From assembly GCA_964016885.1 (NCBI GenBank), contig CAXHJY010000023.1, forward strand, positions 115,713 to 179,712: a stretch of DNA of 64,000 nt, given 5' to 3'. The stretch is from Eledone cirrhosa. Taxonomy: Eukaryota. Below the pieces are notes generated by a model that was given only the letters and a program-made list of their open reading frames with translations, did not search any database and was not told the DNA's origin. Below, one piece after another: positions 1 through 54,453 of this stretch (position 1 is its first letter; every line of letters starts with the position of its first letter). Position numbers and translations under genes: made by a program.

Positions 1-3000
1 ACCGGTTCTTAGAGTCATACTGGTTTTTGAGGAAACACCTTTCCTCTATTCTCCAGAAAGCCAAACAAGGAATATTGGACTAGTTTCGATGTTGTTACAT
101 CTCATCAGCAATATTTACCTATCTTCCGGCTTCTCTAGAGAATCGTGAAAGCACATATCGTTATATGCTTTTTCTATGAAAATTAGTAGTGGGCAGACTA
201 ATTTGCATAGAGCGTGAGTACGTACCGGTTCAACGGAGACGATAAAAACAAATAACGAAACGAAATTAAATTTCGTTTCGTTTGTAACTCACTTTTGTAT
301 GACTGACGCTTAAACAATTAAGTTAAAAATGTACATCCACATATGTATACTGAAATACTAGTATGCATATGAATACACACACGTGTACATATGTAGATGT
401 ACCGAGTTTTCACTGGTCACTTTACTGTGAGTGTCCAGCTATTCTGTATGTAGACACACAGACAAACCGGTTCTTAGAGTCATACTGGTTTTTGAGGAAA
501 CACCTTTCCTCTATTCTCCAGAAAGCCAGACAAGGAATATTGGACTAGTTTCGATGTTGTTACATCTCATCAGCAATATTTACCTATCTTCCGGCTTCTC
601 TAGAGAATCGTGAAAGCACATATCGTTATATGCTTTTTCTATGAAAATTAGTAGTGGGCAGACCAATTTGCATAGAGCGTGAGTACGTACCGGTTCAACG
701 GAGTCGATAAAAACAAATAACGAAACGAAATTAAATTTCGTTTCGTTTGTAACTCACTTTTGTATGACTGACGCTTAAACAATTAAGTTAAAAATGTACA
801 TCCACATATGTATACTGAAATACTAGTATGCATATGAATACACACACGTGTACATATGTAGATGTACCGAGTTTTCACTGGTCACTTTACTGTGAGTGTC
901 CAGCTATTCTGTATGTAGACACACAGACAAACCGGTTCTTAGAGTCATACTGGTTTTTGAGGAAACACCTTTCCTCTATTCTCCAGAAAGCCAGACAAGG
1001 AATATTGGACTAGTTTCGATGTTGTTACATCTCATCAGCAATATTTACCTATCTTCCGGCTTCTCTAGAGAATCGTGAAAGCACATATCGTTATATGCTT
1101 TTTCTATGAAAATTAGTAGTAGGCAGACCAATTTGCATAGAGCGTGAGTACGTACCGGTTCAACGGAGACGATAAAAACAAATAACGAAACGAAATTAAA
1201 TTTCGTTTCGTTTGTAACTCACTTTTGTATGACTGACGCTTAAACAATTAAGTTAAAAATGTACATCCACATATGTATACTGAAATACTAGTATGCATAT
1301 GAATACACACACGTGTACATATGTAGATGTACCGAGTTTTCACTGGTCACTTTACTGTGAGTGTCCAGCTATTCTGTATGTAGACACACAGACAAACCGG
1401 TTCTTAGAGTCATACTGGTTTTTGAGGAAACACCTTTCCTCTATTCTCCAGAAAGCCAGACAAGGAATATTGGACTAGTTTCGATGTTGTTACATCTCAT
1501 CAGCAATATTTACCTATCTTCCGGCTTCTCTAGAGAATCGTGAAAGCACATATCGTTATATGCTTTTTCTATGAAAATTAGTAGTGGGCAGACCAATTTG
1601 CATAGAGCGTGAGTACGTACCGGTTCAACGGAGACGATAAAAACAAATAACGAAACGAAATTAAATTTCGTTTCGTTTGTAACTCACTTTTGTATGACTG
1701 ACGCTTAAACAATTAAGTTAAAAATGTACATCCACATATGTATACTGAAATACTAGTATGCATATGAATACACACACGTGTACATATGTAGATGTACCGA
1801 GTTTTCACTGGTCACTTTACTGTGAGTGTCCAGCTATTCTGTATGTAGACACACAGACAAACCGGTTCTTAGAGTCATACTGGTTTTTGAGGAAACACCT
1901 TTCCTCTATTCTCCAGAAAGCCAGACAAGGAATATTGGACTAGTTTCGATCTTGTTACATCTCATCAGCAATATTTACCTATCTTCCGGCTTCTCTAGAG
2001 AATCGTGAAAGCACATATCGTTATATGCTTTTTCTATGAAAATTAGTAGTGGGCAGACTAATTTGCATAGAGCGTGAGTACGTACCGGTTCAACGGAGAC
2101 GATAAAAACAAATAACGAAACGAAATTAAATTTCGTTTCGTTTGTAACTCACTTTTGTATGACTGACGCTTAAACAATTAAGTTAAAAATGTACATCCAC
2201 ATATGTATACTGAAATACTAGTATGCATATGAATACACACACGTGTACATATGTAGATGTACCGAGTTTTCACTGGTCACTTTACTGTGAGTGTCCAGCT
2301 ATTCTGTATGTAGACACACAGACAAACCGGTTCTTAGAGTCATACTGGTTTTTGAGGAAACACCTTTCCTCTATTCACCAGAAAGCCAGACAAGGAATAT
2401 TGGACTAGTTTCGATGTTGTTACATCTCATCAGCAATATTTACCTATCTTCCGGCTTCTCTAGAGAATCGTGAAAGCACATATCGTTATATGCTTTTTCT
2501 ATGAAAATTAGTAGTGGGCAGACCAATTTGCATAGAGCGTGAGTACGTACCGGTTCAACGGAGACGATAAAAACAAATAACGAAACGAAATTAAATTTCG
2601 TTTCGTTTGTAACTCACTTTTGTATGACTGACGCTTAAACAATTAAGTTAAAAATGTACATCCACATATGTATACTGAAATACTAGTATGCATATGAATA
2701 CACACACGTGTACATATGTAGATGTACCGAGTTTTCACTGGTCACTTTACTGTGAGTGTCCAGCTATTCTGTATGTAGACACACAGACAAACCGGTTCTT
2801 AGAGTCATACTGGTTTTTGAGGAAACACCTTTCCTCTATTCTCCAGAAAGCCAGACAAGGAATATTGGACTAGTTTCGATGTTGTTACATCTCATCAGCA
2901 ATATTTACCTATCTTCCGGCTTCTCTAGAGAATCGTGAAAGCACATATCGTTATATGCTTTTTCTATGAAAATTAGTAGTGGGCAGACCAATTTGCATAG

Positions 3001-3956
3001 AGCGTGAGTACGTACCGGTTCAACGGAGACGATAAAAACAAATAACGAAACGAAATTAAATTTCGTTTCGTTTGTAACTCACTTTTGTATGACTGACGCT
3101 TAAACAATTAAGTTAAAAATGTACATCCACATATGTATACTGAAATACTAGTATGCATATGAATACACACACGTGTACATATGTAGATGTACCGAGTTTT
3201 CACTGGTCACTTTACTGTGAGTGTCCAGCTATTCTGTATGTAGACACACAGACAAACCGGTTCTTAGAGTCATACTGGTTTTTGAGGAAACACCTTTCCT
3301 CTATTCTCCAGAAAGCCAGACAAGGAATATTGGACTAGTTTCGATGTTGTTACATCTCATCAGCAATATTTACCTATCTTCCGGCTTCTCTAGAGAATCG
3401 TGAAAGCACATATCGTTATATGCTTTTTCTATGAAAATTAGTAGTGGGCAGACCAATTTGCATAGAGCGTGAGTACGTACCGGTTCAACGGAGACGATAA
3501 AAACAAATAACGAAACGAAATTAAATTTCGTTTCGTTTGTAACTCACTTTTGTATGACTGACGCTTAAACAATTAAGTTAAAAATGTACATCCACATATG
3601 TATACTGAAATACTAGTATGCATATGAATACACACACGTGTACATATGTAGATGTACCGAGTTTTCACTGGTCACTTTACTGTGAGTGTCCAGCTATTCT
3701 GTATGTAGACACACAGACAAACCGGTTCTTAGAGTCATACTGGTTTTTGAGGAAACACCTTTCCTCTATTCTCCAGAAAGCCAGACAAGGAATATTGGAC
3801 TAGTTTCGATGTTGTTACATCTCATCAGCAATATTTACCTATCTTCCGGCTTCTCTAGAGAATCGTGAAAGCACATATCGTTATATGCTTTTTCTATGAA
3901 AATTAGTAGTGGGCAGACCAATTTGCATAGAGCGTGAGTACGTACCGGTTCAACGG
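1..3956 (-). repeat. 465-bp tandem array (~8.5 units, continues off the left edge), one hammerhead per unit; retrozyme/Penelope pLTR-like family A
   Basis: Identical ORFs recur at 363, 828, 1293 ... 3618 (period 465). Only scattered SNPs between units. Each unit has AATATTG-CTGATGA-GATGT-AACA-ACATC-GAAA-CTAG-TC-CAATATT on the minus strand. Confidence 0.92.
71..115 (-). ncRNA. Minimal type I hammerhead ribozyme (family A); repeated at 536, 1001, 1466, 1931, 2396, 2861, 3326 and 3791
   Basis: Stem I AATATTG/CAATATT, core CUGAUGA, stem II GATGT/ACATC, GAAA, palindromic mini stem III (ACTAGT), GUC cleavage triplet. The copy at 1931 has a stem II mismatch (position 1951). Confidence 0.88.
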
Positions 3957-4663
3957 TCGAAACTAGTCCAATATTCCTTGTCTGGCTTTCTGGAGAATAG
4001 AGGAAAGGTGTTTCCTCAAAAACCAGTATGACTCTAAGAACCGGTTTGTCTGTGTGTCTACATACAGAATAGCTGGACACTCACAGTAAAGTGACCAGTG
4101 AAAACTCGGTACATCTACATATGTACACGTGTGTGTATTCATATGCATACTAGTATTTCAGTATACATATGTGGATGTACATTTTTAACTTAATTGTTTA
4201 AGCGTCAGTCATACAAAAGTGAGTTACAAACGAAACGAAATTTAATTTCGTTTCGTTATTTGTTTTTATCGTCTCCGTTGAACCGGTACGTACTCACGCT
4301 CTATGCAAATTGGTCTGCCCACTACTAATTTTCATAGAAAAAGCATATAACGATATGTGCTTTCACGATTCTCTAGAGAAGCCGGAAGATAGGTAAATAT
4401 TGCTGATGAGATGTAACAACATCGAAACTAGTCCAATATTCCTTGTCTGGCTTTCTGGAGAATAGAGGAAAGGTGTTTCCTCAAAAACCAGTATGACTCT
4501 AAGAACCGGTTTGTCTGTGTGTCTACATACAGAATAGCTGGACACTCACAGTAAAGTGACCAGTGAAAACTCGGTACATCTACATATGTACACGTGTGTG
4601 TATTCATATGCATACTAGTATTTCAGTATACATATGTGGATGTACATTTTTAACTTAATTGTT
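3957..4663 (+). repeat. Inverted ~1.5 units of the 465-bp repeat (fold-back end of the array)
   Basis: Reverse complement of ~3103-3809. Junction caacgg|tcgaaactagtcc. Ends at taacttaattgtt, abutting a (TA)n tract. Confidence 0.93.
4396..4440 (+). ncRNA. Minimal type I hammerhead ribozyme (family A), predicted cleavage after 4433
   Basis: aatattg CTGATGA gatgt aaca acatc GAAA ctag TC caatatt read directly on the + strand. Confidence 0.88.
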
Positions 4664-5279: not shown

Positions 5280-5348
5280 ATTTTATTATGCGCATTTCAA
5301 AAACAAACATCATCATGCAATAATATTTGTGTTTTCATCAGATAAAAC
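5280..5348 (-). ncRNA. Type I hammerhead ribozyme, family B (left arm)
   Basis: Reverse complement of the 5473-5541 motif. Confidence 0.72.
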
Positions 5349-5472
5349 AGGAGAACATGATATGAAGGCTAAAAAACACATGTGGATAGTGCAGTTGATA
5401 GTGCAGATAGATATGTTGATTTAAAACTGCACTATCCACAAGTGTTTTTTAGCCTTCATATCATGTTCTCCT

Positions 5473-5541
5473 GTTTTATCTGATGAAAACACAAATATTA
5501 TTGCATGATGATGTTTGTTTTTGAAATGCGCATAATAAAAT
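5473..5541 (+). ncRNA. Type I hammerhead ribozyme, family B (right arm)
   Basis: ttttat CTGATGA [long stem II aaacacaaatattat...atgatgtttgtttt] GAAA tgcgca TA ataaaa. Palindromic stem III, AUA triplet. Confidence 0.75.
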
Positions 5542-7649: not shown

Positions 7650-8029
7650 GCACACATATATATATGTACGTATGGATTCACCGAACATTTATTATAATGC
7701 TCGGCGTGTTTGTAAACAAACATCCCTTATTAAGCCGTAGTGTCCAGCAACCATCGTTGCTCGTTTGTTCAACACTGACAAAGGAACGCTGTACTAGTTT
7801 CAAGCTTATTAGGTATCGTCAGCAACGTATACCTTCCTGCCAGATTGTTGAACGTATATACTTACATTATGCACATTAACGGCTGAGTAGCTCAATTTGC
7901 ATATCGAGTGGATTAATCGGCCGGGTGCACCGAAAACGATAAACGCAAAAAATGAAACCAAATTTCATTTCCCACACCTAACCGATTAACCCCCGATTAA
8001 CCCACTCGATATGCAAATTGGGCTACTCA
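7645..8029 (-). mobile_element. Diverged family A relative with hammerhead and terminal fold-back (arms 7884-7920 and 7993-8029)
   Basis: Blocks collinear with the 465-bp unit: agtgtccagc, gacaa-ggaa, actagtttc, caatttgcata, acgataaa, aaatttc. Confidence 0.7.
7783..7833 (-). ncRNA. Hammerhead ribozyme, diverged family A
   Basis: ggtatacgttg CTGACGA tacctaataagctt GAAA ctag TA cagcgttcc. Stem I covaries relative to family A; stem II is weak. Confidence 0.7.
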
Positions 8030-13203: not shown

Positions 13204-13248
13204 AATATTGGACTAGTTTCGATGTTGTTACATCTCATCAGCAATATT
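13204..13248 (-). ncRNA. Hammerhead ribozyme, family A
   Basis: Identical to the array motif. Confidence 0.85.
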
Positions 13249-13413
13249 TACCTATCTTCCGGCCTTTCTAGAGAATCGTAAAAGCACATATCGTTATATG
13301 CTTTTTCTATGAAAATTGCCCACTACTAATTTTCTGCCACTACTAATTTTCATAGAAAAAGCATATAACGATATGTGCTTTTACGATTCTCTAGAAAGGC
13401 CGGAAGATAGGTA

Positions 13414-13458
13414 AATATTGCTGATGAGATGTAACAACATCGAAACTAGTCCAATATT
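13414..13458 (+). ncRNA. Hammerhead ribozyme, family A
   Basis: aatattg CTGATGA gatgtaacaacatc GAAA ctag TC caatatt. Confidence 0.85.
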
Positions 13459-27944: not shown

Positions 27945-29330
27945 TCTGATCTCTTTGATTCTGCGCTGGATGTTCGTGTTAAGAGGGGGGCTGAGCTGTC
28001 AACTGATCACCATCTAGTTATCTGAAACTTGAGACTATCTAAAGCCAAAAAAAGACGATAAAGCTGACTGCTCCAGGGCGATTTACTGGATAGGGTGGGA
28101 AGCGTTAGTAGATATGGAAGTCAGGACCGGGTATGCAGATACTATTGCATCCAAATTCAGAGAATTCCTTGATCAGACTGAGTACGTTGAGACAGAATGG
28201 AGATTGTTCATCTCAGCGTTTCTGCTTCAGCTGTTAAATACCGGGGAAGAAATAGGCTTCTTGTGACGCCCTATGGCAGGAGGACCCCTTGGTTCAATCA
28301 AGAGTTCAAAGATGACATCCGAGGAAAGAAAGAGGGGAGGCATATAAGCATGGTTTGGAAATAAGTCCTCATTCTTATACTTGTACACGAAGTATCGCAA
28401 GAAAGAGTGTAAATGCGTCCAAAATGAAGACATGGCAGTGCTTTCGTGTTAAGCTGGAATTCTACTTCAGATCAGCAAATAAAGTGTTCTGGCAGACCAT
28501 CCACCGACTTCGTAATAGGAAGTCCTCCTCCATTCCTGCTATCAGGAACGCGTCTGGGGTTCTCCTCTCTTCAGATAGGTGCATCCTTGCGAAATGGAGT
28601 GAATATATTTCTGATCCACTGAACCCGATCATAACAGCATATTCTGATGTATACGAGGTGCATCTGGGAGCGGTGACCAATCCCTCGAAGGCTGAGGTTA
28701 CAAGAGCAGTTACAGAGCTCAAATGTGGCAAGGCCACTGGGGAAGATGAGATCTGGTCCGAGATGTTAAATGATGGTATTCTCTGGCTTTCTGACATATG
28801 CCTGGTGGCTTGGGTCTCTGGAAAAGCACCTACGCAATAGAAATTGGGAGTGATAATTACTATTTTCAAAAAAAAAATGAGACGAGTAATTTTACCAATT
28901 ACAGAGGGATCCTCTTGTTAAGCCTCCCGGGTAAAGTCTATGCTAAGTGTCTGGCAAAGAGATGCAAGGAAAGTATCGAGTCCAAACTAGCTGATGAACC
29001 GTGCGATGTTCGCCCCCGACGCAATATTCACATTGCGGTAGCTCTTGTGATTATTGTCAAGATGTATATTCTTGTTTTGTAGATCTCGAAATGGTCGTGC
29101 AGGAGTATGGGATCGATGGTCAGCTTCCTGATAGAATGATGTCTCAATCGATTGCCCGAGTATTAGTGTTCGGATACATGGTGCTAAATCAAAACTTTCA
29201 ATGTGGGAGTCGCACTCCGCCAACAGTGAGTTATGTCACCTCTCCCGCTCATTATTTTTATGAATATGATTGACATGCACAGCCAGGTTGTTAGGGTTAC
29301 GACCGGCAGGTGTAAAATCAGTCGGCTGGA
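27945..29330 (+). mobile_element. Decayed RTE-clade (Expander/Rex3-like) LINE: APE C-terminus plus RT N-terminal part
   Basis: KRGAELSTDHHLV, SANKVFWQTIHRLR, GKATGEDEI, NYRGILLLSLPGKVYAKCL, CFVDLE, with stops and frameshifts. Confidence 0.85.
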
Positions 29331-29406
29331 ATTAATTGTAGCCATTGTTACTCATTCCTCACTTTACCGTTAATCTATTATCCCCTCCTCTCATATATAT
29401 ATCGCA

Positions 29407-29493
29407 CCCGAACTACACCGATGTCCTGTAATTCAGCGCCGAAACATCGGTTCGGGACACATTTACAGCTGACGATGGAAAATACTTTTTTCC
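29407..29493 (+). ncRNA. Candidate non-circularly permuted hammerhead-like RNA
   Basis: accgatg TC ctgtaa - ttcagcgcc - GAAA catcggt - ttacag CTGACGA - t ggaaaa..ttttcc hairpin. Confidence 0.55.
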
Positions 29494-29569
29494 TTTCTCC
29501 TCCGCTTCCGTGCTAACCACCATCCTAAACCTTGTTTTTAGTAACCACAGAGCTCCTTTCATTTCATAA

Positions 29570-29612
<43 letters not shown>

Positions 29613-35233: not shown

Positions 35234-35237
<4 letters not shown>

Positions 35238-35320
35238 AGGTATATGATTTTTAATGCGATGAAATACCAATGATGGTTGGCAAATCACTGATGAGGGACT
35301 AATTTTATAATATGTAACCC
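35234..35320 (+). ncRNA. Candidate non-circularly permuted hammerhead-like RNA
   Basis: ggta TA tgattt - ttaatgcgat - GAAA tacc - aaatca CTGATGA - ggg...ccc. Confidence 0.52.
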
Positions 35321-35357
35321 ATGTGCAACCACGCAGTATTACTCTTTCTTCCCATGT

Positions 35358-35400
<43 letters not shown>

Positions 35401-38458: not shown

Positions 38459-41400
38459 GGAGGTGGGGACTACGCTGTGTAGACAGGTGTTTTGGCAGGA
38501 GGGCACTACGCTGTGTAGACAGGTGTTTTGGGAGGTGGGGACTACGCTGTGTAGACAGGTGTTTTGGGAGGTGGGCACTACGCTGTGTAGACAGGTGTTT
38601 TGGGAGGTGGGCACTACGCTGTGTAGACAGGTGTTTTGGGAGGTGGGGACTACGCTGTGTAGACAGGTGTTTTGGGAGGTGGGCACTACGCTGTGTAGAC
38701 AGGTGTTTTGGGAGGTGGGGACTACGCTGTGTAGACAGGTGTTTTGGGAGGTGGGCACTACGCTGTGTAGACAGGTGTTTTGGGAGGTGGGCACTACGCT
38801 GTGTAGACAGGTGTTTTGGGAGGTGGGGACTACGCTGTGTAGACAGGTGTTTTGGGAGATGGGGACTACGCTGTGTAGACAGGTGTTTTGGGAGGTGGGC
38901 ACTACGCTGTGTAGACAGGTGTTTTGGGAGGTGGGCACTACGCTGTGTAGACAGGTGTTTTGGGAGGTGGGCACTACGCTGTGTAGACAGGTGTTTTGGG
39001 AGGTGGGCACTACGCTGTGTAGACAGGTGTTTTGGGAGGTGGGGACTACGCTGTGTAGACAGGTGTTTTGGGAGGTGGGCACTACGCTGTGTAGACAGGT
39101 GTTTTGGGAGGTGGGGACTACGCTGTGTAGACAGGTGTTTTGGGAGGTGGGCACTACGCTGTGTAGACAGGTGTTTTGGGAGGTGGGCACTACGCTGTGT
39201 AGACAGGTGTTTTGGGAGGTGGGCACTACGCTGTGTAGACAGGTGTTTTGGGAGGTGGGCACTACGCTGTGTAGACAGGTGTTTTGGGAGGTGGGGACTA
39301 CGCTGTGTAGACAGGTGTTTTGGGAGGTGGGCACTACGCTGTGTAGACAGGTGTTTTGGGAGGTGGGGACTACGCTGTGTAGACAGGTGTTTTGGGAGGT
39401 GGGGACTACGCTGTGTAGACAGGTGTTTTGGGAGGTGGGCACTACGCTGTGTAGACAGGTGTTTTGGGAGGTGGGCACTACGCTGTGTAGACAGGTGTTT
39501 TGGGAGGTGGGCACTACGCTGTGTAGACAGGTGTTTTGGGAGGTGGGGACTACGCTGTGTAGACAGGTGTTTTGGGAGGTGGGGACTACGCTGTGTAGAC
39601 AGGTGTTTTGGGAGGTGGGCACTACGCTGTGTAGACAGGTGTTTTGGCAGGAGGGCACTACGCTGTGTAGACAGGTGTTTTGGGAGGTGGGCACTACGCT
39701 GTGTAGACAGGTGTTTTGGGAGGTGGGCACTACGCTGTGTAGACAGGTGTTTTGGGAGGTGGGGACTACGCTGTGTAGACAGGTGTTTTGGGAGGTGGGC
39801 ACTACGCTGTGTAGACAGGTGTTTTGGGAGGTGGGGACTACGCTGTGTAGACAGGTGTTTTGGGAGGTGGGCACTACGCTGTGTAGACAGGTGTTTTGGC
39901 AGGAGGGCACTACGCTGTGTAGACAGGTGTTTTGGAAGGTGGGCACTACGCTGTGTAGACAGGTGTTTTGGGAGGTGGGGACTACGCTGTGTAGACAGGT
40001 GTTTTGGCAGGAGGGCACTACGCTGTGTAGACAGGTGTTTTGGAAGGTGGGCACTACGCTATGTAGACAGGTGTTTTGGCAGGAGGGCACTACGCTGTGT
40101 AGACAGGTGTTTTGGGAGGTGGGCATTACGCTGTGTAGACAGGTGTTTTGGGAGGTGGGCACTACGCTGTGTAGACAGGTGTTTTGGGAGGTGGGCACTA
40201 CGCTGTGTAGACAGGTGTTTTGGGAGGTGGGCACTACGCTGTGTAGACAGGTGTTTTGGGAGGTGGGCACTACGCTGTGTAGACAGGTGTTTTGGGAGGT
40301 GGGGACTACGCTGTGTAGACAGGTGTTTTGGGAGGTGGGCACTACGCTGTGTAGACAGGTGTTTTGGGAGGTGGGGACTACGCTGTGTAGATAGGTGTTT
40401 TGGGAGGTGAGTATTACGCTGTGTAGACAGGTGTTTTGGGAGGTGGGCACTACGCTGTGTAGACAGGTGTTTTGGGAGGTGGGCACTACGCTGTGTAGAC
40501 AGGTGTTTTGGGAGGTGAGTATTACGCTGTGTAGACAGGTGTTTTGGGAGGTGGGCACTACGCTGTGTAGACAGGTGTTTTGGGAGGTGGGCACTACGCT
40601 GTGTAGACAGGTGTTTTGGGAGGTGAGTATTACGCTGTGTAGACAGGTGTTTTGGGAGGAGGGCATTACGCTGTGTAGATAGGTGTTTTGGGAGGTGGGC
40701 ACTACGCTGTGTAGACAGGTGTTTTGGGAGGTGGGCACTACGCTGTGTAGACAGGTGTTTTGGGAGGTGAGTATTACGCTGTGTAGACAGGTGTTTTGGG
40801 AGGTGGGCACTACGCTGTGTAGACAGGTGTTTTGGGAGGTGGGCACTACGCTGTGTAGACAGGTGTTTTGGGAGGTGAGTATTACGCTGTGTAGACAGGT
40901 GTTTTGGGAGGAGGGCATTACGCTGTGTAGATAGGTGTTTTGGGAGGTGGGCACTACGCTGTGTAGACAGGTGTTTTGGGAGGTGGGCACTACGCTGTGT
41001 AGACAGGTGTTTTGGGAGGTGAGTATTACGCTGTGTAGACAGGTGTTTTGGGAGGTGGGCACTACGCTGTGTAGACAGGTGTTTTGGGAGGTGAGTATTA
41101 CGTTGTGTAGACAGGTGTTTTGGGAGGAGGGCATTACGCTGTGTAGATAGGTGTTTTGGGAGGTGGGCACTACGCTGTGTAGACAGGTGTTTTGGGAGGT
41201 GGGCACTACGCTGTGTAGACAGGTGTTTTGGGAGGTGAGTATTACGCTGTGTAGACAGCTGTTTTGGGAGGTGAGTATTACGCTGTGTAGACAGGTGTTT
41301 TGGGAGGTGAGTATTACGCTGTGTAGACAGGTGTTTTGGGAGGTGAGTATTACGCTGTGTAGACAGGTGTTTTGGGAGGTGGGCACTACGCTGTGTAGAC

Positions 41401-44400
41401 AGGTGTTTTGGGAGGTGAGTATTACGTTGTGTAGACAGGTGTTTTGGGAGGTGGGCACTACGCTGTGTAGACAGGTGTTTTGGGAGGTGAGTATTACGCT
41501 GTGTAGACAGGTGTTTTGGGAGGTGGGCACTACGCTGTGTAGACAGGTGTTTTGGGAGGTGGGCATTACGCTGTGTAGATAGGTGTTTTGGGAGGTGGGC
41601 ACTACGCTGTGTAGACAGGTGTTTTGGGAGGTGGGCACTACGCTGTGTAGACAGGTGTTTTGGGAGGTGAGTATTACGCTGTGTAGACAGGTGTTTTGGG
41701 AGGTGGGCACTACGCTGTGTAGACAGGTGTTTTGGGAGGTGAGTATTACGTTGTGTAGACAGGTGTTTTGGGAGGTGGGCACTACGCTGTGTAGACAGGT
41801 GTTTTGGGAGGTGAGTATTACGCTGTGTAGACAGGTGTTTTGGGAGGTGGGCACTACGCTGTGTAGACAGGTGTTTTGGGAGGTGGGCATTACGCTGTGT
41901 AGATAGGTGTTTTGGGAGGTGAGTATTACGCTGTGTAGACAGGTGTTTTGGGAGGTGGGCACTACGCTGTGTAGACAGGTGTTTTGGGAGGTGAGTATTA
42001 CGCTGTGTAGACAGGTGTTTTGGGAGGTGGGCACTACGCTGTGTAGACAGGTGTTTTGGGAGGTGAGTATTACGCTGTGTAGACAGGTGTTTTGGGAGGT
42101 GGGCACTACGCTGTGTAGACAGGTGTTTTGGGAGGTGGGGACTACGCTGTGTAGACAGGTGTTTTGGGAGGTGGGCACTACGCTGTGTAGACAGGTGTTT
42201 TGGGAGGTGGGGACTACGCTGTGTAGACAGGTGTTTTGGCAGGAGGGCACTACGCTGTGTAGACAGGTGTTTTGGGAGGTGGGCACTACGCTGTGTAGAC
42301 AGGTGTTTTGGGAGGTGAGTATTACGCTGTGTAGACAGGTGTTTTGGGAGGTGGGCACTACGCTGTGTAGACAGGTGTTTTGGGAGGTGGGGACTACGCT
42401 GTGTAGACAGGTGTTTTGGCAGGAGGGCACTACGCTGTGTAGACAGGTGTTTTGGGAGGTGGGCACTACGCTGTGTAGACAGGTGTTTTGGGAGGTGGGC
42501 ACTACGCTGTGTAGACAGGTGTTTTGGGAGGTGGGCACTACGCTGTGTAGACAGGTGTTTTGGCAGGAGGGCACTACGCTGTGTAGACAGGTGTTTTGGG
42601 AGGTGGGCACTACGCTGTGTAGACAGGTGTTTTGGCAGGAGGGCACTACGCTGTGTAGACAGGTGTTTTGGGAGGTGGGCACTACGCTGTGTAGACAGGT
42701 GTTTTGGCAGGAGGGCACTACGCTGTGTAGACAGGTGTTTTGGGAGGTGGGCACTACGCTGTGTAGACAGGTGTTTTGGGAGGTGGGCACTACGCTGTGT
42801 AGACAGGTGTTTTGGGAGGTGGGCACTACGCTGTGTAGACAGGTGTTTTGGCAGGAGGGCACTACGCTGTGTAGACAGGTGTTTTGGGAGGTGGGCACTA
42901 CGCTGTGTAGACAGGTGTTTTGGGAGGTGGGGACTACGCTGTGTAGACAGGTGTTTTGGGAGGAGGGCACTACGCTGTGTAGACAGGTGTTTTGGCAGGA
43001 GGGCACTACGCTGTGTAGACAGGTGTTTTGGGAGGTGGGGACTACGCTGTGTAGACAGGTGTTTTGGCAGGAGGGCACTACGCTGTGTAGACAGGTGTTT
43101 TGGGAGGAGGGCACTACGCTGTGTAGACAGGTGTTTTGGCAGGAGGGCACTACGCTGTGTAGACAGGTGTTTTGGGAGGTGGGGACTACGCTGTGTAGAC
43201 AGGTGTTTTGGGAGGTGGGCACTACGCTGTGTAGACAGCTGTTTTGGGAGGTGGGCACTACGCTGTGTAGACAGGTATTTTGGGAGGTGGGGACTACGCT
43301 GTGTAGACAGGTGTTTTGGCAGGAGGGCACTACGCTGTGTAGACAGGTGTTTCGGGAGGTGGGGACTACGCTGTGTAGACAGGTGTTTTGGGAGGTGGGC
43401 ACTACGCTGTGTAGACAGGTGTTTTGGGAGGTGGGGACTACGCTGTGTAGACAGGTGTTTTGGGAGGTGGGCACTACGCTGTGTAGACAGGTGTTTTGGG
43501 AGGTGGGGACTACGCTGTGTAGACAGGTGTTTTGGCAGGAGGGCACTACGCTGTGTAGACAGGTGTTTTGGGAGGTGGGGACTACGCTGTGTAGACAGGT
43601 GTTTTGGGAGGTGGGCACTACGCTGTGTAGACAGGTGTTTTGGGAGGTGGGCACTACGCTGTGTAGACAGGTGTTTTGGGAGGTGGGGACTACGCTGTGT
43701 AGACAGGTGTTTTGGGAGGTGGGCACTACGCTGTGTAGACAGGTGTTTTGGGAGGTGGGGACTACGCTGTGTAGACAGGTGTTTTGGCAGGAGGGCACTA
43801 CGCTGTGTAGACAGGTGTTTTGGGAGGTGGGGACTACGCTGTGTAGACAGGTGTTTTGGGAGGTGGGCACTACGCTGTGTAGACAGGTGTTTTGGGAGGT
43901 GGGCACTACGCTGTGTAGACAGGTGTTTTGGGAGGTGGGGACTACGCTGTGTAGACAGGTATTTTGGGAGGTGGGGACTACGCTGTGTAGACAGGTGTTT
44001 TGGGAGGTGGGGACTACGCTGTGTAGACAGGTGTTTTGGGAGGTGGGGACTACGCTGTGTAGACAGGTGTTTTGGGAGGTGGGCACTACGCTGTGTAGAC
44101 AGGTGTTTTGGCAGGAGGGCACTACGCTGTGTAGACAGGTGTTTTGGGAGGTGGGCACTACGCTGTGTAGACAGGTGTTTTGGGAGCTGGGCACTACGCT
44201 GTGTAGACAGGTGTTTTGGGAGGTGGGCACTACGCTGTGTAGACAGGTGTTTTGGGAGGTGGGCACTACGCTGTGTAGACAGGTGTTTTGGGAGGAGAGT
44301 ATTACGCTGTGTAGACAGGTGTTTTGGGAGGTGGGCATTACGCTGTGTAGACAGGTGTTTTGGGAGGTGGGCATTACGCTGTGTAGACAGGTGTTTTGGG

Positions 44401-45550
44401 AGGTGGGCACTACGCTGTGTAGACAGGTATTTTGGGAGGTGGGGACTACGCTGTGTAGACAGGTGTTTTGGCAGGAGGGCACTACGCTGTGTAGACAGGT
44501 GTTTTGGGAGGTGGGGACTACGCTGTGTAGACAGGTGTTTTGGGAGGTGGGCACTACGCTGTGTAGACAGGTGTTTTGGGAGGTGGGGACTACGCTGTGT
44601 AGACAGGTGTTTTGGGAGGTGGGCACTACGCTGTGTAGACAGGTGTTTTGGGAGGTGGGGACTACGCTGTGTAGACAGGTGTTTTGGCAGGAGGGCACTA
44701 CGCTGTGTAGACAGGTGTTTTGGGAGGTGGGGACTACGCTGTGTAGACAGGTGTTTTGGGAGGTGGGCACTACGCTGTGTAGACAGGTGTTTTGGGAGGT
44801 GGGCACTACGCTGTGTAGACAGGTGTTTTGGGAGGTGGGGACTACGCTGTGTAGACAGGTGTTTTGGGAGGTGGGCACTACGCTGTGTAGACAGGTGTTT
44901 TGGGAGGTGGGGACTACGCTGTGTAGACAGGTGTTTTGGCAGGAGGGCACTACGCTGTGTAGACAGGTGTTTTGGGAGGTGGGGACTACGCTGTGTAGAC
45001 AGGTGTTTTGGGAGGTGGGCACTACGCTGTGTAGACAGGTGTTTTGGGAGGTGGGGACTACGCTGTGTAGACAGGTATTTTGGGAGGTGGGGACTACGCT
45101 GTGTAGACAGGTGTTTTGGGAGGTGGGGACTACGCTGTGTAGACAGGTGTTTTGGGAGGTGGGGACTACGCTGTGTAGACAGGTGTTTTGGGAGGTGGGC
45201 ACTACGCTGTGTAGACAGGTGTTTTGGGAGGTGGGCACTACGCTGTGTAGACAGGTGTTTTGGGAGCTGGGCACTACGCTGTGTAGACAGGTGTTTTGGG
45301 AGGTGGGCACTACGCTGTGTAGACAGGTGTTTTGGGAGGTGGGCACTACGCTGTGTAGACAGGTGTTTTGGGAGGAGAGTATTACGCTGTGTAGACAGGT
45401 GTTTTGGGAGGTGGGCATTACGCTGTGTAGACAGGTGTTTTGGGAGGTGGGCATTACGCTGTGTAGACAGGTGTTTTGGGAGGTGGGCATTACGCTGTGT
45501 AGACAGGTGTTTTGGGAGGTGGGCACTACGCTGTGTAGACAGGTGTTTTG
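38459..45550. repeat. 36-bp minisatellite, ~197 copies (ggaggtgggcactacgctgtgtagacaggtgttttg)
   Basis: Unbroken 36-bp phase over ~7.1 kb with substitution variants only. Confidence 0.97.
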
Positions 45551-54055: not shown

Positions 54056-54453
54056 ATAATATAAGATCAAAAGATGGTTAAAGGAGTTCCATGTATTTTA
54101 TTATGCGCATTTCAAAAACAAACACCATCATGCAATAATATTTGTGTTTTCATCAGATAAAACAGGAGAACATGATATGAAGGCTATAAAACACTTGTGG
54201 ATAGTGCAGTTTTAAATCAACAAGTGTTTTTTTAGCCTTCATATCATGTTCTCCTGTTTTATCTGATGAAAACACAAATATTATTGCATGATGATGTTTG
54301 TTTTTGAAATGCGCATAATAAAATACATGGAACTCCATTAACCATCTTTTGATCTTATATTATGTATACTCCAGTCCTACAAACTGTAGAGTGCTTCTTA
54401 TCCGATATCTGCATTGCTTTATTGTACTACAATAAAACTCACCTCCTACATAT
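54056..54453. mobile_element. Second fold-back family B element with hammerheads at 54096-54162 (-) and 54257-54323 (+)
   Basis: Reverse-oriented near-identical copy of 5152-5581 with a different central junction. Confidence 0.8.

Follow-up and report, generated by a model that had tools for sequence, protein, structure and literature searches.

The window analysed in this study, a stretch of 64,000 nucleotides from the genome of Eledone cirrhosa, carries on its forward strand a copy of a repeat in which the segments of a hammerhead ribozyme core follow one another in an unusual order. Reading from the 5' side, a strand termed b (CCCGA, 29407-29411) precedes the 5' strand of stem III (ACCGATG), which runs directly into U16.1 (29424) and C17 (29425) and was recognised by its letters and by a descriptor scan (29417-29425); the cut is predicted 3' of C17, at 29425. 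The first strand of stem I follows (strand 1.x, CTGTAA, 29426-29431; descriptor and covariation), its partner being at 29463-29468, and then come a 4-nt linker and strand Y' (11.x, GCGCC, 29436-29440), together covering 29432-29440. The block at 29441-29451 comprises G12-A13-A14-A15.1 (GAAA, 29441-29444) and the 3' strand of stem III (29444-29451), after which strand b' (TCGGG, 29452-29456), the partner of strand b, is found. The second strand of stem I (2.x, TTACAG, 29463-29468) and the catalytic loop C3-A9 (CTGACGA, 29469-29475) make up the segment 29463-29475. All the segments claimed for this locus in the initial annotation were recovered at their positions, as were the pairing and mutual crossing of stem I (6 bp) and stem III (8 bp); the CCCGA/TCGGG pairing, which it had taken for a distal part of stem III beyond a bulge, is better read as a helix joining stems I and II.

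Upstream of this core a remnant of a further strand, Y, is present (CGCA of GGCGCA, 29403-29406, forward strand), which is the partner of the strand preceding GAAA, in the position of stem II. A (TA)n run at 29393-29402 marks the 5' truncation point and stands in place of a strand X, a hairpin V and the first two bases of Y. Downstream of the catalytic loop lies strand X' (UGGAAA, 29476-29481), whose upstream partner X is absent at this locus and present in intact copies, and overlapping it is a GGAAAA/TTTTCC hairpin (29477-29493), a private variant of the window copy. The whole (29403-29572, forward strand) is a 5'-truncated copy of a 769-nt non-coding repeat, family A, consisting of the ribozyme remnant and a tail of about 100 nt to a fixed 3' end, where a (TA)n microsatellite (29572-29607) is the insertion target. 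Since just 3 bp of Y/Y' are retained, and both X and V are lost, the window copy is likely to be weak or dead, that is, an inactive, 5'-truncated one. A second truncated copy, belonging to family B and having other stem sequences, lies at 35236-35360 on the same strand (C17 position 35244, GAAA 35261-35264, CUGAUGA 35288-35294). Directly upstream of the first copy, at about 28,860-29,330 on the forward strand, there is a broken reverse transcriptase fragment, presumably of LINE type judging from its motifs, which is not common to other copies and is unrelated to the repeat element.

The descriptor used for the scan combined U-H, GAAA and CUGANGA with stems I and III in the exact hammerhead register and under strict pairing, and it detected two sites in the window with the order NUH>GAAA>CUGANGA (S>G>C), at 29425 (6+8 bp) and at 35244 (6+5 bp). 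As had been proposed, this order falls outside types I-III: the nested circular order CUGANGA>GAAA>NUH is not found and the stems cross. The proposal of a non-circularly permuted core is likewise borne out, S>G>C being the block order of type SGC in the available text of Eckert et al. 2023 (PMC10085705). For the control against shuffled sequence, the window was subjected to local dinucleotide shuffling and both strands were scanned; no S>G>C match with both stems of at least 5 bp occurred in 2,989 shuffled windows, and 25 with both stems of at least 4 bp were seen. Chance origin is therefore excluded at the stem strength of the window sites. Rfam at gathering scores gave no match in the window, and no ribozyme family was among its 61 weak matches at six loci. 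Two other readings of the locus were considered and rejected. If the GAAA two bases 3' of CUGACGA is taken as a canonical G block, no room is left for stem II and the downstream GUC yields only 2 bp for stems I and III; a UAAUGCG linker suggestive of a twister was not accompanied, on reading, by the other twister letters.

When the 171 bases round the locus were used as a query, 1,006 first-look candidates were obtained from the 3.0-Gb genome, and the 40 of them that were scored were all 93-100% identical. Family A, as sampled at 30 loci, consists of copies which end about 100 nt 3' of CUGACGA, nearly all of them in (TA)n, and which begin at varied points, with head-to-tail repeats in two of the 30 loci. 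Its unit is 769 nt, as given by the head-to-tail spacing in one of these loci (L021), and with 70 aa as the longest ATG-started frame it is regarded as non-coding. The median identity is 97.5% over all pairs among the 30 copies and 93.6% between the window copy and the other 29. Family B, represented by the second window site, gave 807 candidates with units of 525-535 nt. The pattern GCGNNGAAAN{20,26}CTGANGA matched the genome 19,926 times, as compared to 72 times for the reversed control. Tandem units of 470-783 nt were obtained in 12 of 13 same-family spacing sets, and one 888-nt spacing lies between different subfamilies; in all families the motif is positioned 30-110 nt from the fixed 3' end. 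In three sequence runs from one sample, stored as contigs and possibly the assembly's own, the unit is covered and the 769-nt head-to-tail joint is present; no RNA data set was among those listed as containing it. The repeats thus show insertion into (TA)n, a fixed 3' end, 5' truncation and partial tandems, features expected of a non-autonomous element derived from Naiads, a group of Penelope-like elements. In five loci (L080, L209, L223, L224 and L206) the copy begins with an inverted fragment of its own element, the junction lying inside the ribozyme, and these inverted ends resemble those of Penelope-like insertions.

These copies also bear on the earlier suggestion that a local hairpin replaces canonical stem II, one half of which holds: the canonical local stem II is missing, but the hairpin is not its replacement. 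The 6-bp hairpin after CUGACGA (-5.1 kcal/mol) occurs in 1 of 30 family A copies, namely the window copy itself, and most of the others can form merely a 4-bp hairpin of -1.9 kcal/mol, the same strand pairing with X instead. We therefore regard it as hardly credible that a hairpin following A9 stands in for stem II throughout, or that the arrangement is accidental; the folding of the window copy speaks for such a view, and its restriction to a single copy, the shuffled windows and the excess of genomic matches over the control speak against it.

In its intact form the motif is about 110 nt long and reads, from 5' to 3', strand X, hairpin V, strand Y, strand b, a stem III strand, U16.1, H17, a stem I strand, 3-4 nt, strand Y', GAAA with the other stem III strand, strand b', the other stem I strand, CUGANGA and strand X'. 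Strand X pairs with the bases directly after A9 and strand Y with the bases directly before GAAA, V being placed between X and Y. Among the 30 family A copies, X is retained in 22, V in 19 and Y in 23. For a wider comparison, 143 distinct copies were grouped into 21 clusters by their 3' halves, and one natural copy was chosen per cluster by its likeness to its siblings and not by its pairing; after removal of L209 and L068, which lack the upstream CGC, and of L219, which lacks the upstream hairpin, 18 representatives remained, two of them from metagenomes. Seventeen of these (L221 being left out as well) were aligned with MAFFT.

Pairing within representatives was compared with pairing between non-cognate strands. 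The mean numbers of pairs in the 18 representatives (cognate/non-cognate) were 5.72/3.65 for stem I, 4.44/3.71 for stem III, 4.83/4.27 for Y/Y', 5.94/3.04 for b/b' and 4.61/2.73 for X/X', with 2.00/1.85 for an X window shifted by 12 nt; the local stem II stood at 1.22/1.23, which is chance for at least 2 pairs. The second Y pair, occurring as G-C, U-A and A-U, was formed in 16 of the 18 against a comparison value of 0.32. In the alignment of 17, 84.1% of the cells were paired, as opposed to 68.7% after shuffling and 30-46% in slid controls, and two-sided changes were seen at 23 of 33 pairs, including 6 of 6 in stem I and 3 of 5 in stem III, whereas a 4-bp local stem II was paired in 33.8% of cells versus 36.2% after shuffling. 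As regards the covariation raised in the initial annotation, stems I and III do covary across families. Stem I, b/b' and X/X' remain paired when the two main clades are taken separately; at the second Y pair the B clade has U-A as well as A-U, and the A clade has G-C throughout. No variation is seen in the Eledone cirrhosa genome at the central CGC/GCG of Y/Y', GCG being part of the search pattern. The permutation p-values are optimistic because the families are kin. MAFFT misaligned X and V between A- and B-type rows (68.7% for helix 1), and because an unconstrained partner search is non-specific in pyrimidine-rich DNA, the test of X was confined to a set position next to V and accompanied by a shifted control. 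Nested folding, which cannot show both pseudoknots, gave V and X in most representatives and was split between stem I, stem III and Y. Helices X/X', V, b/b', stems I and III and Y/Y' are shown by covariation.

The letters of the catalytic core are those of hammerheads: C3-U-G-A-N-G-A9 lies beside stem I, and G12-A13-A14, A15.1-U16.1 and an H17 other than G are in place. Most search patterns themselves contained GCG, GAAA and CUGANGA, so that the upstream CGC, U16.1/H17 and the copies found without core letters provide the checks which are free of that bias. U16.1, outside the search pattern, is present in 115 of 120 copies, and H17 is G in none of the 120; copies collected without core letters in the search have GAAA in 28 of 30, CUGANGA in 26 of 30 and UH in 29 of 30; and the upstream CGC, outside the collecting pattern, occurs in 101 of 131 copies versus 2 in the control window. 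One feature of the hammerhead class is lacking, namely a stem II built from the strands after A9 and before G12, whose place Y/Y' would take.

The nearest relatives are two of the non-circular hammerheads described by Eckert et al. (PMC10085705), in whose available text no known organism carries one, save for a weak bacterial candidate. Type SGC (HRIMA-1), found there in metatranscriptomes and not in the genomes of known organisms, has in common with our motif the S>G>C order, the crossing stems, all the core letters, a 3-4 nt link between stem I and the 11.x strand, and a helix by which stems I and II are connected at their far ends; in the motif, 2-4 nt precede the six-base Y' window and b/b' is the presumed joining helix. 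The earlier question of whether the locus matches a published type can therefore be answered in part: the block order is that of type SGC, but block C is interrupted. In type SGC the strand after A9 forms stem II, whereas here CUGANGA is not directly followed by its stem II strand; the bases after A9 pair with upstream X, while upstream Y pairs with 11.x. The ends of type SGC are joined in the motif, which opens after A9 instead, and the motif is genomic, with about 20,000 copies. Type CSG, known from two metagenome sequences in the same work, has the same cyclic strand order, but its stem II is uninterrupted and its opening lies where stem III meets the joining helix; blocks in C, S, G order with such a stem II are not found at the window locus. 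All three can be drawn as one circle (b', stem I, CUGANGA, Y, b, stem III, cut site, stem I, Y', GAAA, stem III) which type SGC opens between b and stem III, type CSG between stem III and b', and the motif just after A9, where X/X' and V are additions. Because the X, Y and V helices covary and the local stem II does not, we describe the motif as an SGC/CSG-like hammerhead opened just after A9; it would work like hammerheads of these types but lacks one defining feature of each.

The wiring conflicts with a rule given by Eckert et al. (PMC10085705), who assumed that the CUGANGA block is uninterruptible and by whose account the known hammerhead alignments allow at most 1-2 inserted nt where CUGANGA adjoins its stems; that the motif breaks this rule counts against its reading as a ribozyme. 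A precedent of another kind is the PK hammerhead (PDB 8YDC; Zhan et al. 2024, PMC11300833). In the text available, the place of its helix II is taken by a pseudoknot helix, which has about 4 Watson-Crick pairs and an A:A or G:A cap, and only one 10.1-11.1 pair is formed, so that such a helix together with one pair can replace helix II. Y/Y' of the motif is similar in having 4-6 bp and often ending in A-A or G-A, and the lone pair is seen in B-type families. The two differ in that the partner strand of the PK hammerhead is the loop of a hairpin linked to helix I, whereas the motif has a non-circular order and a strand placed in a proposed four-way junction.

This lone pair, between the base after A9 and the base before G12, covaries and is found in 22 of 30 B-type clusters (14.5 on shuffling); a pair of this sort is missing in the remaining 8, the C family included. 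In none of the 14 A-type clusters, the kind to which the window copy belongs, does it occur, and there C11.1 pairs with a G of strand Y. Family D has a weak Y/Y' (4 bp) and a possible 3-bp local stem II. One may ask, then, whether the motif is simply plain type SGC, its local stem II being very short (1-2 bp, with or without one extra base after A9) and X, V and Y being peripheral elements or a switch outside the active fold. We consider this improbable. The retained lone pair would suit it, family A can form G-C, G-C with one extra U, and an unpaired base after A9 is known in Penelope hammerheads; but a local stem II of at least 2 pairs stays at chance and is lacking in both metagenome copies, L140 and L162, while Y/Y' and X/X' covary here and are re-written yet paired in the published Naiads as far as available, and nematode Naiads with the same strand order have Y joined to A9 as a true stem II.

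The helices kept across families would, on the favoured reading of a hammerhead opened after A9, have the following roles. Y/Y' would take the place of stem II and deliver G12, and X, V, Y and the core would meet in a four-way junction at the stem II base; as the lone 10.1-11.1 pair remains in B-type families, their branch point would lie one pair further out. Helix b/b' would tie the far ends of stems I and II in the manner of the 'I' helix of type SGC. The core may be expected to fold as in other hammerheads (C3-G8, A9-G12, G12 as base and the 2'-OH of G8 as acid), with the cut, by the same analogy, after H17.

Such a fold requires two crossing helices in one loop of about 20 nt, and this is among the reasons for asking whether stem I and Y/Y' form between two molecules or tandem units, as in minimal Penelope hammerheads. 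The units are indeed often tandem, and Penelope and salamander hammerheads work as dimers. Dimeric hammerheads, however, have a short palindromic stem III, whereas that of the family representatives is 4-8 bp and not palindromic, and type SGC, whose loop takes the same path, cleaves during transcription (PMC10085705, available text). A dimer is in our judgement very improbable.

Beyond the Eledone cirrhosa genome a single fixed-spacing pattern was used, which detects one spacing only. With it, 2 of 47 metagenome matches (L140 and L162) had real stems, against none of 35 prokaryote matches, and viral contigs gave no match. Both metagenome copies show the full X-V-Y architecture with unrelated stem sequences. 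In L140 a reverse transcriptase, read in the same sense as the motif, has its stop about 260 nt upstream of it. This reverse transcriptase shows 88% identity to the C-terminal 246 residues of P0002; in the latter, which is 915 aa long, GIY-YIG occupies 53-119, CxC lies at 354 and DKA at 487. N-terminal GIY-YIG, CxC and DKA are the Naiad marks given by Craig et al. 2021 (PMC8557442, as available). The L140 reverse transcriptase showed no relative in viral contigs and no Pfam family. The second metagenome copy (L162, 952-1063) has no reverse transcriptase in the 1,650 bases covered.

According to the available text of Craig et al. (PMC8557442), Naiads favour (TA)n and are without canonical hammerheads, some of them hold 'core' or 'half-core' strings which fit no descriptor, and it was argued from this absence that hammerheads may merely parasitise Penelope-like elements. 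We read the portion of their File S5 available to us by eye round CTGATGA, CTGACGA, CTGAAGA and CTGAGGA, a procedure which misses strings split across lines. The full architecture was seen at the 3' end of 9 of 54 Naiad consensus sequences, those of Amil, Aacu, Anas, 2_Movir, Plae, Obim, Ovul, one Clytia family and, as assigned by file order, EuTe; in the Bfor Naiad it is partial, stem I being 2 bp long. Type CSG, its stem II unbroken, was found, again by eye, in 6 of the 54, all nematode (1, 2 and 3_Nbra and three placed by file order alone), and the DNA-only CSG examples might themselves come from Naiads. Since Naiad Y/Y' strands are re-written yet paired (e.g. GGCUCC/GGAGCC, GACACC/GGUGUC, GGGGAG/UUCCCC), Y/Y' covaries at depth as well. 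The remaining Naiads in that portion, including several from spiders, an ostracod, crab and bivalves, had other or no recognisable arrangements; further hammerhead-core arrangements appear in arthropod Naiads (File S5 parts 16-19), one apparently S>G>C with a long insertion. In the openly accessible papers covered, no permuted hammerhead is described in Naiads and none is opened after A9. The motif is likely to be the overlooked ribozyme of Naiads.

The repeats have their RNA architecture in common with L140 and nine published Naiads (within the available part of File S5), but no Naiad open reading frame joined to the motif was found in the Eledone cirrhosa genome. Like Naiads (PMC8557442, available text), the repeat inserts into (TA)n, is truncated at the 5' end and forms tandem copies; Naiads, on the other hand, are coding and have one open reading frame, which the 769-nt non-coding repeat lacks. 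The Naiad-like reverse transcriptases found are all decayed (apart from the query, the best copies have 55-78% identity to it and mostly contain stops), and none of 22 such loci has the motif within 1.5 kb downstream; no motif is attached to the best 30 GIY-YIG loci or to 7 longer stretches of elements with a C-terminal nuclease, and two old copies resembling the cephalopod Naiad ribozyme have no reverse transcriptase beside them. The repeat families are young, as judged by their 97.5% identity, although the Naiad-like reverse transcriptases are decayed. Candidates for the mobilising enzyme are an unfound or lost Naiad, or another element acting in trans. A young and intact Penelope-like family does exist (L298-L301; open reading frame 2799-5129 in L298), with a 777-aa frame, C-terminal GIY-YIG, an overlapping upstream frame and a microsatellite-filled 3' region ending in (TA)n; the descriptor found no hammerhead in it, and it has no sequence in common with the repeats outside microsatellites and separate insertions.

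The organisation of the repeats recalls non-LTR retrozymes, which in the available texts (Cervera and de la Pena 2020, PMC7229834; Li et al. 2026, 10.64898/2026.07.22.740005) are dispersed, short, non-coding tandem units with one hammerhead each, tied to Penelope-like elements. The units here are likewise short, non-coding and tandem, and each has one hammerhead. Retrozymes are, however, defined by type I hammerheads, with which both papers are concerned and which the repeats do not have; circular RNA has been shown for retrozymes. The window holds elements of the ordinary kind too. Canonical type I hammerheads occur at 1-3956 (minus strand), at 4403 (plus) and at 13211-13451 (inverted pair), the first of these being a tandem array of a 465-nt unit (8.5 copies, 99% alike) with one type I hammerhead per unit and a short palindromic stem III, an ordinary non-LTR retrozyme missed by Rfam at gathering scores. 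Two more type I hammerhead-like families are found at 5287-5534 and 54102-54317 (inverted pairs) and at 7792-7822 (minus strand); one of the two has a long stem II region, and relatives occur in L115 and L297 too. A 36-nt satellite (197 copies, 95% matches, strongly G-skewed) occupies 38459-45550.

Taking the evidence together, we think it quite likely, from what the sequences tell, that the locus represents a rearranged hammerhead, probably self-cleaving in its intact copies, on short non-coding tandem repeats likely derived from Naiad Penelope-like retrotransposons. The ribozyme may serve to cut tandem or read-through transcripts into unit lengths, and these could possibly be closed to circles as in retrozymes. 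Reverse transcription would start 30-110 nt downstream of A9 at the (TA)n target and run back across the cut site, which would account for the fixed 3' end, the random 5' ends and the tandem copies. Because insertions begin downstream of the cut site and cross it, they require a template that has stayed uncut or has been ligated again. A Poseidon element is known to initiate internally, and hammerhead cleavage is dispensable for its insertion in vitro.

The same facts may be turned into another account, in which the motif no longer cleaves and is kept as a structure recognised by the Naiad protein for starting reverse transcription. Its constant distance from the fixed 3' end in all families, the uncut site contained in insertions and the Poseidon result would all agree with this, as would the lack of a clear pile-up of 5' ends at the cut site: among the 27 distinct loci listed, 4 have their 5' end there, a count confounded by the element's own TATA, and about a dozen have it in a TA-like linker. 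What makes this account very unlikely is the catalytic pattern of conservation, in which C3-A9, G12-A14 and U16.1 are fixed while N7 and H17 are free, H17 never being G, and which holds from ctenophore to cephalopod Naiads, as far as these are available, while all the helices change. A hammerhead that still cuts in its intact copies remains our preferred reading.

More broadly, we consider it fairly probable that Naiads across animals carry active non-circularly permuted hammerheads. The elements of cnidarians, acanthocephalans, crustaceans and cephalopods would have a seventh wiring, which opens after A9 and has its four-way junction at stem II, those of nematodes would have type CSG, and Eledone cirrhosa would carry about 20,000 copies, spread over at least a dozen non-coding 'Naiad retrozyme' families. 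If this is true, these families are invisible to type I searches, the seeming want of a hammerhead in Naiads is explained, a host and a function are found for the non-circular permutations, and the CUGANGA block tolerates being split. If the motif cleaves, animal genomes would commonly contain non-circular hammerheads, and there would be a wiring which the six-permutation scheme does not cover; the natural steps (a continuous stem II, the lone pair and a full exchange of strands) would show how wirings interconvert. RNA design would also gain a new scaffold in a hammerhead whose helix at A9 is free. Both the parasitism view of Craig et al. 2021 and the intact-block view of Eckert et al. 2023 would then change.
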